Sequence record: OK272472.1
Length of the DNA stretch: 64,000 nucleotides
Strand: one strand, 5' to 3'
Source: Escherichia phage JLBYU28
The notes beneath the pieces are model-generated. The model was not told the DNA's origin. It saw only the letters and a program-made list of their open reading frames with translations, and searched no databases. Of this stretch, positions 50,479 to 51,876 are shown piece by piece. The translations under genes were made by a program, and so were the position numbers. Within the stretch, counting starts at the first letter, position 1. Each line of letters opens with the position of its first letter.

Positions 50479-50550
50479 TGGTACTCCATATCGGATTCGA
50501 ACCGATACATAACACAGATTTTAAGTCTGGCCTCTCTGCCAATTGGAGTA
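50479..50550 (-). tRNA. tRNA with Leu anticodon TAA, short variable arm (atypical)
   Basis: T-arm ATCGG-TTCGAAT-CCGAT, loop CTTAAAA, discriminator A; about 72 nt. Confidence 0.5.
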
Positions 50551-50559
50551 ATGGAGCAT

Positions 50560-50634
50560 TGGCGGGGGATGTTGGAATTGAACCAACTTCTTCGATTTCA
50601 AAGACCGAGGTTTTAACCTTGTAAACTAATCCCC
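50560..50634 (-). tRNA. tRNA-Gln (anticodon TTG)
   Basis: Stem TCGGT/ATCGA with loop CTTTGAA; T-loop TTCAATT; 3' boundary uncertain. Confidence 0.55.
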
Positions 50635-50643
50635 TTTAAATCT

Positions 50644-51201
50644 TTACTTTCTTAGTGGATGAATAAAGAATGCCAACATAATTCTTTCCCTTGAAAATGC
50701 TCTTTCTTCTGGGACAACACTTTTAAGTTTCCAACCAACATAAATTCTCCAGTAAAATTGTTTACCAAAGATTTTAATTGACGGGATAAAAGCGAATAAA
50801 CCCCAAGCATTACTGTTCCACATCAGGAGATAACCTGTCTGATTATCTTCAGGGTTAGAACTTACGTTGATATTACCTTTCCACTTAGTAACATCTTTTA
50901 CATCTCTTCCTAATACATGGTAAGAGAAGTTATAAGCTTTGTTTCTCCAGAGCCATCCAACTCTCTGCATATAAACACCGAGCTTACCAATCTTTCGAAT
51001 CTTAGCCCATCGTTCAACGTGACCTTTGTCACCATCAATTGGGTTGTCATAAGTTTCCATCCACCTGAACCCGAAAGGTAAGTGTCCTTTTTTCTCACTG
51101 TAGAATGGAACTACGAAAGGTGCTAAGATAACTGCTAAGATTGCTGCAAATGGCTCTAACAAAGCTAAGAAAATCCATGAAGCATACTTCAAATATCTCA
51201 T
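50644..51201 (-). CDS. Hypothetical membrane protein embedded in the tRNA cluster
   Basis: 185 aa with N-terminal hydrophobic segment WIFLALLEPFAAILAVILAPFVV; W/Y-rich body. Confidence 0.5.
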   Translation of the reverse strand: MRYLKYASWIFLALLEPFAAILAVILAPFVVPFYSEKKGHLPFGFRWMETYDNPIDGDKGHVERWAKIRKIGKLGVYMQRVGWLWRNKAYNFSYHVLGRDVKDVTKWKGNINVSSNPEDNQTGYLLMWNSNAWGLFAFIPSIKIFGKQFYWRIYVGWKLKSVVPEERAFSRERIMLAFFIHPLRK

Positions 51202-51220
51202 CTAAATAGCCTCTTTAAAT

Positions 51221-51298
51221 TGGTGTTCCAAGACGGATTCGAACCGTCACTAATACAAGGTTTGAGCTTGCATCCTCTGCCAATTGGGATACTGGAAC
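51221..51298 (-). tRNA. tRNA with Leu anticodon CAA, short variable arm (atypical)
   Basis: Acceptor GTTCCAG/TTGGAAC, T-arm GACGG-TTCGAAT-CCGTC, loop CTCAAAC, discriminator A. Confidence 0.5.
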
Positions 51299-51299
51299 A

Positions 51300-51374
51300 T
51301 GGTACTCACTAAAGGACTTGAACCTTTTTCTTCATCTTGTAAGGGTGATGTTTTACCATATAAACTAAGCGAGT
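51300..51374 (-). tRNA. tRNA-Val (anticodon TAC)
   Basis: Acceptor ACTCGCT/AGTGAGT, loop CTTACAA, discriminator A. Confidence 0.55.
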
Positions 51375-51377
51375 GTG

Positions 51378-51466
51378 AAAGAGGTCTGAAGTTGTGCCGC
51401 TAACTCAACTCCGTGGAATTTGTTACGGTCTTCAGTTGACACCAGCGGTCTTTCACTTGACCTCTG
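51378..51466 (-). ncRNA. Structured ~90-nt element without a canonical T-loop (candidate small RNA or decayed tRNA)
   Basis: Terminal 7-bp pairing AGAGGTC/GACCTCT encloses internal stems (CCGCT/AGCGG, CTGAAG/CTTCAG) and GGTCT-type motifs. Confidence 0.3.
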
Positions 51467-51469
51467 AAT

Positions 51470-51546
51470 TGGTGCTGCTCACAGGACTCGAACCTGCATT
51501 TCCATCCTTACAAGGGATGTGTAATAGCCAATTATACGAAAGCAGC
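51470..51546 (-). tRNA. tRNA-Thr (anticodon TGT)
   Basis: Acceptor GCTGCTT/GAGCAGC, stem CATCC/GGATG with loop CTTGTAA. Confidence 0.7.
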
Positions 51547-51552
51547 TTTATT

Positions 51553-51627
51553 TGGAGCATCCAGAGGGAATCGAACCCTCAACCTCAGTTTGGAAGACTG
51601 TAATTTTCCCGTTTAAACTATGGATGC
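51553..51627 (-). tRNA. tRNA-Gly (anticodon TCC)
   Basis: Acceptor GCATCCA/TGGATGC, loop CTTCCAA, discriminator U. Confidence 0.7.
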
Positions 51628-51633
51628 ACTAAT

Positions 51634-51709
51634 TGGTGGAGAAGCAGGGAATTGAACCCTGTACTTAAGTTTGCAAAACTTATGTTTTAACCATGTAAAC
51701 TACATCCCC
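51634..51709 (-). tRNA. tRNA-Ala (anticodon TGC)
   Basis: G3-U70 wobble in acceptor, stem TAAGT/ACTTA with loop TTTGCAA, discriminator A. Confidence 0.65.
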
Positions 51710-51715
51710 AATGTC

Positions 51716-51791
51716 TGGTACAGGTGGAGGGAATTGAACCCATCGTCTTACTGATTAAGAGTCAGCCGCATAACCATTTTGCTACACCTGC
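51716..51791 (-). tRNA. tRNA-Lys (anticodon CTT)
   Basis: Acceptor GCAGGTG/CACCTGT, loop CTCTTAA, discriminator A; imperfect T-stem. Confidence 0.55.
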
Positions 51792-51798
51792 ATTAATT

Positions 51799-51876
51799 TG
51801 GTAGGAGACAAGGGATTCGAACCCTCAAACATCTCGTTCTAAGCGAGATAGGTTTACCAATTACCATCAATCTCCC
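51799..51876 (-). tRNA. tRNA with Leu anticodon TAG, short variable arm (atypical)
   Basis: Stem TCTCG/CGAGA with loop CTTAGAA, T-arm GAGGG-TTCGAAT-CCCTT, discriminator A. Confidence 0.5.

Follow-up and report, generated by a model that had tools for sequence, protein, structure and literature searches.

Three leucine tRNA genes with short variable regions

The DNA analysed here is a 64,000-nt stretch from Escherichia phage JLBYU28 (record OK272472.1), referred to below as the window, and it contains, within a cluster of tRNA genes, three genes that have leucine anticodons and lack the long variable arm usual for bacterial tRNA-Leu.

50479-50557, minus strand: tRNA-Leu(UAA), type I, 79 nt including the encoded CCA (ARAGORN; Rfam 47.5 bits)
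51221-51298, minus strand: tRNA-Leu(CAA), type I, 78 nt including CCA (ARAGORN; Rfam 44.0 bits)
51799-51876, minus strand: tRNA-Leu(UAG), type I, 78 nt including CCA (ARAGORN; Rfam 44.7 bits)

The first-pass annotation had placed the second and third genes correctly, but it ended the first at 50550 instead of 50557, cutting off the 5' strand of the acceptor stem, and it left the minus strand unstated. Its lengths of 72-78 nt have to be corrected to 78-79 nt, whereas its anticodons (TAA, CAA and TAG) are assigned identically by ARAGORN, and the discriminator A that it read is present in all three genes as a DNA-encoded A73-CCA end.

The layout of tRNA-Leu(UAA) is GCUCCAU UA CUC C-AAUUGGCAG-A GAG G CCAGA CUUAAAA UCUGU GUUAUGU AUCGG UUCGAAU CCGAU AUGGAGU A CCA. 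The D-arm of tRNA-Leu(CAA), UCC C AAUUGGCAG A GGA, is of the same type as that of the UAA gene and of actinobacterial type I Leu tRNAs; its anticodon loop is CUCAAAC, with C38, and its variable region (A)UUAGU. In tRNA-Leu(UAG) the anticodon loop is CUUAGAA, with A37 and not G37, and the variable region is GUUU or UGUUU. Besides A73 and the encoded CCA, the three genes share an acceptor stem of 7 bp, an anticodon loop of 7 nt that includes U33, and the T-loop UUCGAAU. A regular D-arm joined to the acceptor stem by positions 8 and 9 is present in the UAA and CAA genes. The D-arm of tRNA-Leu(UAG) is irregular, forming either a GGU/ACC stem after a 4-nt connector or the pairs A10-U25, U11.C24 and G12-C23; ARAGORN, Rfam and minimum free energy (MFE) folding each choose a different register, and a second allele, described below, shows no covariation that would favour one of them.

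The short variable region noted at first pass was confirmed: it measures 7 nt in UAA, 5-6 nt in CAA and 4-5 nt in UAG (7, 5 and 4 nt in the ARAGORN bracket strings), while a type II tRNA has a variable region of more than about 10 nt that forms a stem-loop, so that all three are type I tRNA-Leu genes. Their scores with the Rfam tRNA model RF00005 exceed the gathering score of 29 (E-values 5e-8 to 4e-7 in a 6.3-kb search), and each folds into a cloverleaf with a 7-bp acceptor stem and D, anticodon and T arms. The shortness of the Leu arms is not an artefact of the program, because both serine tRNAs of the same cluster, which served as internal controls, retain long arms:

49364-49456, minus strand: tRNA-Ser(GCU), 93 nt, long variable arm kept (ARAGORN drawing)
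52131-52220, minus strand: tRNA-Ser(UGA), 90 nt, long variable arm kept (ARAGORN)

The source phage is, judged by its sequence, Felix O1-like (Felixounavirus, Ounavirinae). Over the 4.9-kb tRNA region, the identity to Salmonella phage Felix O1 and related phages is 96-97%, and 314 phage records match this region, at 80 to 99% identity. All three Leu tRNAs are 100% identical in Felix O1, and identity is at least 95% in most of the 263-342 phage records that match the three genes; tRNA-Leu(UAA) is at least 99% identical in 215 of 263 matching records and tRNA-Leu(CAA) in 159 of 302. Conservation of the Leu genes is stricter than that of the surrounding DNA and far beyond chance. They are annotated as tRNA-Leu in Felix O1 and relatives, and the tRNAscan-SE Cove scores reported for Felix O1 are 52.2 (TAG), 46.2 (CAA) and about 57 (TAA) (PMC3185647).

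Phage tRNA clusters do hold pseudo-tRNAs, such as the Felix O1 His and Tyr genes, which are flagged, and a remnant near 53300-53340 of the window, so we considered whether the three genes might be decaying or mis-folded, non-functional relics of type II Leu tRNAs. MFE folding of the UAA tRNA, which gives no full cloverleaf and a z-score of -1.6, would agree with such decay; the z-scores of the three Leu tRNAs in single-sequence folding, -1.3 to -1.8, are uninformative, as is usual for tRNAs. The genes show none of the marks of a pseudogene (low score, broken stems, lost conserved nucleotides or a flag): the prediction programs gave the same anticodons, the identical genes of Felix O1 carry no pseudogene flag, and the CCA ends and all nucleotides of tertiary interactions are intact. 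Together with the conservation, which exceeds that of the neighbouring DNA, with substitutions that are compensatory, and with the occurrence of the same architecture in unrelated phage families, where it accounts for about half of the sampled phage Leu tRNAs, this makes decay or mis-folding extremely improbable.

The compensatory changes are visible both within the genus and across phages. Two alleles of tRNA-Leu(UAG) occur in Felixounavirus, with the anticodon stem UCUCG/CGAGA in the window and Felix O1 and CCAUC/GUUGG in UAB_Phi87; four of the five pairs are exchanged between them, and pairing is kept in all but one. An alignment of 18 short-arm Leu tRNAs taken from 10 phage genomes has standard pairs in 97.5% of its cells, compared with 35-48% when the 3' partners are slid, and 18 of the 20 pairs change on both sides. 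Covariation is seen in all four helices, and 0 of 500 shuffles reached the observed covariation score. The suggestion at first pass that the folds might be mistaken is contradicted by this covariation and by the conservation.

The UAB_Phi87 allele, at 3501-3578 of the stretch examined, is the counterpart of window 51799-51876, and one Felixounavirus Leu(UAG) allele carries an anticodon stem like that of Escherichia phage OSYSP.

Probable leucine identity, codon supply and loss of the arm

When the phage genes were aligned with leuZ (UAA), leuX (CAA) and leuW (UAG) of E. coli K-12, the sole systematic difference was a gap of about 8-12 columns exactly at the extra stem-loop. The D-loop is AAUUGGCAGA in the phage and AAUYGGUAGA in E. 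coli, and the 3-bp D-stem, U48 and A73 are the same. The phage Leu tRNAs are essentially the host tRNA-Leu minus the extra stem-loop, a clean loss. The suggestion that they are phage-adapted Leu tRNAs is supported in this way: ARAGORN and Rfam agree on their folds, they have the Leu-type D-arm, U48 and A73, and the arm alone is missing.

The determinants of E. coli leucyl-tRNA synthetase (LeuRS) are A73, the A15-U48 Levitt pair, G18G19, A20a and D-loop/T-loop pairs (PMC9976931). Neither the anticodon nor the long arm is a determinant, and a truncated tRNA-Leu without both arms stays active (PMC9976931). At the level of sequence, the three genes have what a substrate of an E. coli-type LeuRS needs: the A-CCA end and an elbow comprising U8-A14, A15-U48, G18G19 in a Leu-sized D-loop, A20a, U54, U55, C56 and A58. 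The 18-sequence alignment shows no variation at U8, A14, A15, G18, G19, the A equivalent to A20a, U48, A73 or the residues of the T-loop. Isotype models, the check proposed at first pass, are published for the close relative Sf14 and put Leu first for all three genes, with scores of 67.4, 49.1 and 60.2 (PMC12482277).

The three genes very likely encode functional leucine tRNAs with type I, that is short variable loop, architecture. Host LeuRS would charge all three with leucine because it ignores both the anticodon and the extra arm.

A phage of another family bears on this reading. The window tRNA-Leu(UAG) has 77% identity with a tRNA-Leu found in T5-like phages, OSYSP among them. We searched the whole OSYSP genome (RefSeq copy of MF402939.1, 110,901 bp) with ARAGORN and its tRNA-bearing parts with Rfam, and found just two tRNAs with Leu anticodons, each a type I molecule of 77 nt, and no other long tRNA. 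According to the 2026 preprint PMC13596443, which cites Nyerges et al. 2023, an anticodon-swapped tRNA-Leu(CGA) derived from MF402939.1 decodes TCG as leucine in recoded E. coli. The engineered tRNA is one of the phage's two Leu tRNAs, both of which are type I, and if the preprint's description is accurate, one natural type I tRNA-Leu of a phage, at the least, would be charged by E. coli LeuRS in vivo.

Several points weigh against charging of the window tRNAs by host LeuRS. The OSYSP support depends on a preprint's description of an earlier study. The type I tRNA-Leu(CAA) of Streptomyces coelicolor was not leucylated by E. coli LeuRS, which the same paper calls an enzyme 'which only charges type II' (PMC6614811), and the D-arm type of that tRNA is common to the UAA and CAA genes of the window. 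The Streptomyces tRNA is a heterologous, GC-rich substrate, and its loop A44-C45-A46-G47-C48 places C48 at the Levitt position (PMC6614811); we infer that the enzyme failed on it because C48 replaces U48, which the phage genes have. In the crystal structure, the C-terminal domain of E. coli LeuRS contacts variable-arm nucleotides 47f-47i (PMC6614811), so a lower charging efficiency without the arm is plausible. The D-arm of tRNA-Leu(UAG) is irregular. Finally, Leu(UAG) has A37 where the host has G37, the m1G37 site, and C38 of Leu(CAA) breaks the A36-A37-A38 motif, which is linked to i6A37 and TrmL (PMC9976931), so host anticodon-loop modifications may differ or may not be installed.

LeuRS being blind to the anticodon, changes in the tRNA body could in principle shift identity while the Leu anticodons are kept, and another or an ambiguous synthetase would then charge the tRNAs, the phage recoding or mistranslating Leu codons. 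The irregular D-arm of the UAG gene could be read this way, as could the close runner-up models for the Sf14 orthologue of Leu(UAG) (Ile2 65.7 and Lys 63.4, against Leu 67.4; PMC12482277). Even there Leu is the top model, as it is for the other two genes, and the Leu-specific D-loop, U48 and A73 are invariant. Seryl-tRNA synthetase (SerRS) would find no handle where the long arm is missing, and a related type I phage Leu tRNA is described as inserting leucine in E. coli (PMC13596443). Since the Leu identity set is invariant, we do not favour the different identity raised at first pass and consider an identity switch very improbable.

As leucine tRNAs, the UAA anticodon would read UUA and UUG, CAA would read UUG, and UAG would read CUA and CUG, perhaps also CUU should U34 carry the same modification as in the host. 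With UUA, UUG, CUA and CUG covered by the three anticodons, an ordinary codon-supply role fits. In E. coli, CTG makes up about half of the Leu codons and CTA about 4%. The Leu codons in 65 open reading frames of the window are TTA 28%, CTT 29%, CTG 15%, TTG 12%, CTA 11% and CTC 6%, and the AT-rich phage thus appears to use its tRNA-covered Leu codons far more, relative to CUG, than its host does. Sf14 exceeds its host in the relative synonymous codon usage of TTA and CTA (PMC12482277), and Leu[TTA] is among the codons that the Felix O1 tRNAs should help (PMC3185647).

The simplest reading of the arm loss is that the arm is dispensable for LeuRS and was hence lost. SerRS uses arm size as its main identity element and Ser tRNAs would have to keep their arms, and we propose this as the reason why those of the cluster do. 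The loss may be neutral streamlining or may bring a benefit, for example that SerRS does not cross-recognise the tRNAs or that enzymes which hold on to the long arm are evaded. In the latter direction, the MenT3 nucleotidyltransferase toxin requires a long variable loop, and the abortive-infection toxin AbiEii appears to prefer class II tRNAs. By analogy, the loss might be an adaptive counter-defence that removes the handle for enzymes of the host or of rival elements that select class II tRNAs, although we regard this as rather unlikely. Candidate attackers would be MenT/AbiEii-type nucleotidyltransferase toxins or other arm-reading tRNases, and leucine decoding would survive an attack that disables the host type II tRNAs; this escape would be open to Leu and closed to Ser because the arm is unneeded by LeuRS and needed by SerRS. 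Cleavage of Salmonella tRNA-Leu by the Gifsy-1 terminase was also considered as a selective agent and rejected, since it cuts the anticodon region of the CAG isoacceptor and has no link to the arm.

Phage tRNAs are reported to evolve avoidance of tRNA-targeting defences (PMC10264068; PMC13596443), and the anticodon loops of the window genes are unlike those of the host, so the tRNAs might be made mainly for a purpose other than decoding, as regulators or to act as decoys or sponges that occupy nucleases or nucleotidyltransferases of the host directed at tRNAs. A decoy would have no need of the full LeuRS identity set and the normal acceptor and T arms that are conserved here. The anticodon set, moreover, matches the Leu codons that the phage prefers, and PMC13596443 describes a related tRNA as decoding in vivo; we judge a main role outside decoding to be improbable.

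The tRNA cluster and an Arg(UCU)-like RNA

The Leu genes belong to a long minus-strand cluster, whose orthologue is annotated in phages Felix O1, mio and Mushroom.

49284-54034, minus strand: tRNA gene cluster, 22 tRNA genes (ARAGORN), mostly 1-7 nt apart, with two embedded protein-coding genes
49458-50255, minus strand: embedded protein gene
50644-51201, minus strand: embedded protein gene

The annotations given to the two embedded genes in related records are membrane protein and holin. Unlike that of Felix O1, the window cluster has no tRNA-Arg(ACG) gene and none of the three HNH endonuclease genes, and the slot at 53114-53544, between tRNA-Lys(UUU) and tRNA-Asn, is without the tRNA-Asp and tRNA-Tyr of Felix O1, mio and Mushroom. 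This interval is occupied instead by a perfect 22-bp inverted repeat (53118-53139 and 53240-53261), and it also has, near 53312-53337, what is likely a truncated tRNA 3' half with the T-arm-like GAAGGUUCGAUUCCUUC. The tRNA-Ser(UGA) gene at 52131-52220 is the orthologue of the viral tRNA-Ser(UGA) of REP phages, which are Felixounaviruses about 97% identical to the window; that tRNA is reported to be functional in E. coli (PMC13596443).

Two further elements of the cluster resemble tRNAs.

52461-52543, minus strand: tRNA-Arg(UCU)-like RNA gene, 82 nt, missed by ARAGORN; Rfam tRNA 31.2 bits
52237-52316, minus strand: second tRNA-like hairpin set, with an 8-bp acceptor-like stem, a D-like hairpin and a 5-bp stem with the 9-nt loop CUUCCAACA

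The Rfam alignment of the first RNA requires a deletion of the D-arm and a 20-nt insertion in the variable region. From its 5' end it has a 7-bp acceptor stem, then UAU-CUC-A and a 5-bp stem with the loop CUUCUAA (anticodon UCU), followed by a 23-nt tract, CGUUAAYCGAGUAANUGGAGUAU, a normal T-arm and A73-CCA; a normal D-arm is absent, and the 23-nt tract looks like a displaced D-stem strand plus D-loop. The RNA occupies the exact slot of a canonical tRNA-Arg(UCU) in UAB_Phi87. There are 206 phage records with a match to it, among them those of unrelated Klebsiella, Proteus, Salmonella jumbo and Streptomyces phages (87-89% identity), and 53 IMG/VR contigs contain its core motif. Among 36 distinct sequences of the UCU-like RNA, 35 have the anticodon UCU and one has CCU, and 33 have G or A as discriminator. 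Strong covariation is seen in the stems of the acceptor, anticodon and T arms across 31 of these sequences (99.4% of cells paired, 15 of 20 pairs changing on both sides), and the core is invariant, partly because the search pattern demanded it. In the Felix O1 paper, AGA is described as over-used, yet no tRNA for AGA was found (PMC3185647); the RNA at 52461-52543 is probably this missing AGA decoder in a rearranged tRNA form.

The element at 52237-52316, which drew no call from ARAGORN or Rfam, has the T-like arm GGGG-UUCAACU-CCUC and an MFE z-score of -2.1, and UAB_Phi87 conserves it apart from two loop changes.

Immediately 5' of minus-strand tRNA genes there are long hairpins at 51878-51968, just upstream of tRNA-Leu(UAG) and with 26-nt arms that are 88% complementary, and at 52547-52581, upstream of the UCU tRNA-like gene and with 17-nt arms. 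A microRNA-like Rfam match of the former was below threshold and is surely due to chance. A 34-nt direct repeat, with the plus-strand core UUGCUGUAAAYGGUCUUCUG, is present in four copies (53368-53401, 53458-53491, 53674-53707 and 53840-53873), two of which adjoin minus-strand tRNA genes, those for Met and Glu, at their 3' ends; these repeats could be candidate processing or terminator elements.

Distribution and comparison with known systems

Short-arm Leu tRNAs are widespread in phages. Three Leu genes, all short-arm, are present in Erwinia phage phiEa104 (Ounavirinae), and others were found in Demerecviridae (Aeromonas phage AhP_Mru1, the Tequintaviruses BUCT632 and OSYSP, and Salmonella phage SEW_6S), in the Saclayvirus Acinetobacter phage phiAbaA1, in Herelleviridae (Lactobacillus phage LpeD and Enterococcus phage Bop) and in Vilmaviridae (a Mycobacterium prophage). 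Pattern scans of IMG/VR gave at least 120 loci each for short-arm and long-arm Leu tRNAs, and proportions were taken from a replacement sample of 116 IMG/VR loci chosen solely by a tRNA-Met pattern (0.98 Mb, 933 tRNAs). This sample holds 85 Leu-anticodon tRNAs, 43 with a variable region of 4-8 nt and 42 with one of 10-19 nt (41 distinct sequences in each group). Loci with at least five tRNAs show the same split, 40 short against 39 long. Among the 43 short-arm Leu tRNAs, A73 is present in 40 and U48 in 41, while in the same loci every one of the 58 Ser and 18 Tyr tRNAs has at least 10 nt in this region. About half of the sampled phage Leu tRNAs are thus arm-less, and the Ser and Tyr tRNAs never are; 'about half' is a rough figure, because the sample is small and the contigs are not independent.

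The two forms can replace each other among close relatives. Beside tRNA-Ala, T5 has a normal 85-nt type II tRNA-Leu(UAG) and OSYSP a 77-nt type I tRNA that is 56% identical to it, implying that tRNA cassettes are exchanged; in the stretches examined, the slot lies at 9625-9709 in T5 and 3693-3769 in OSYSP. Next to its three Leu tRNAs of type I, phage LpeD has two other tRNAs called by ARAGORN, at 1296-1387 and 2574-2645 of the stretch examined: one is 92 nt long with a long arm and the anticodon UAU (nominally Ile), and the other has an anticodon loop of 8 nt ('tttg').

A search of GTDB cellular genomes with the short-arm Leu pattern gave at least 120 loci. Among the 80 matches listed, most are single chromosomal genes in Actinomycetota (Nocardia, Mycobacterium, Rhodococcus, Corynebacterium, Arthrobacter, Bifidobacterium and Streptomyces), and most of the remaining ones lie in multi-tRNA arrays of cyanobacteria and Acidobacteriota. 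The D-arm of these cellular tRNAs, UA-GCC-C-AAUUGGCAG-A-GGC, is of the type of the UAA and CAA genes of the window. The premise of the first-pass annotation, that bacterial tRNA-Leu is normally type II, holds for enterobacterial hosts, but in Actinomycetota short-arm Leu tRNAs are common as chromosomal genes. Searched with blastn, 5,426 complete E. coli genomes gave no match to the UAA or the UAG gene.

The standard view is that bacterial tRNA-Leu is type II, with an explicit claim in 2019 that E. coli LeuRS charges type II only; in contrast, a classic Salmonella/E. coli phage has three strictly conserved arm-less Leu tRNAs. If the host enzyme charges them, a natural test of the need for the arm has been run many times, with a clear answer for LeuRS and another for SerRS, and phage genomes should be annotated, and isotype models built, with type I Leu tRNAs in mind. 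The efficient, nuclease-resistant 'viral tRNA-Leu' of virus-resistant recoded E. coli would then belong to the type I class, and the arm would be a concrete structural variable with a bearing on tRNA-targeting defence systems. If LeuRS does not charge them, the phages would alter the reading of Leu codons, which would be of far greater significance.

Part of this is known: the genes are annotated in hundreds of records, and type I tRNA-Leu is known from mitochondria and Streptomyces. The Felix O1 and Sf14 papers make no mention of the variable arm (PMC3185647, PMC12482277), the missing arm goes unmentioned in the OSYSP tRNA-Leu literature that we examined, and a full-text literature search, which took in a survey of virus tRNAs and work on the evasion of tRNA-targeting defences by phage tRNAs, gave no description of arm-less Leu tRNAs in phages, coliphage ones included, and no statement that such tRNAs are common there. 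The nearest report concerns a mycobacterial tRNA-Leu(TAG) (PMC6582537), which likewise has a short variable loop and lies in a mobile array of tRNA genes together with a gene for an HNH endonuclease, the genomes concerned also holding normal chromosomal type II copies. Unlike the present analysis, it is a one-sentence remark on bacterial genomes, with no link to phages or to charging.

Compared with known systems, the phage genes are close to E. coli leuZ, leuX and leuW in having the same anticodons, a 3-bp D-stem, a D-loop of the type AAUYGGYAGA and U8, A14, A15, G18G19, A20a, U48 and A73, and they align with them from end to end except for the arm; G1.U72 is shared with leuZ. They differ in that the host tRNAs are 85-87 nt long with an extra stem-loop of 13-15 nt, where the phage tRNAs have 4-7 nt, in an identity of only 47-58% over shared columns, and in the anticodon loops already described for the counterparts of leuW (A37 for G37 in UAG) and leuX (C38 in CAA). 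The S. coelicolor tRNA-Leu(CAA) (PMC6614811) and the Actinomycetota genes also have a Leu anticodon together with a short variable loop, about 5 nt long, and their D-arm, UA-NCC-C-AAUUGGCAG-A-GGN, is that of the UAA and CAA genes of the window. These are cellular genes, however, to which the leucine-specific domain of their own LeuRS is adapted; A73 is not an identity element for that enzyme, and in the Streptomyces tRNA C48 stands in place of the phage U48 (PMC6614811), whereas the phage genes must rely on an enterobacterial LeuRS.

The viral tRNA-Leu of OSYSP, at 77 nt and type I with A73 and U48, is similar, and its UAG isoacceptor has the same loop CUUAGAA. As described in PMC13596443, with swapped anticodons it reads TCR codons as leucine in recoded E. 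coli. It belongs to another phage family (Demerecviridae) and has a regular D-arm, AUG G AAUUGGCAU A CAU. Minimalist variants of E. coli tRNA-Leu (Larkin et al. 2002, as described in PMC9976931) likewise indicate that LeuRS needs A73 and the D/T-loop elbow and not the extra arm, but these were engineered in vitro substrates without variable and anticodon arms and not natural decoders. Animal mitochondrial tRNA-Leu(UUR) is, like the phage tRNAs, a natural type I tRNA-Leu, with identity based on A73 and A14 (PMC9976931), yet it is served by a dedicated mitochondrial LeuRS, has a floppy, reduced structure and is unrelated in sequence.

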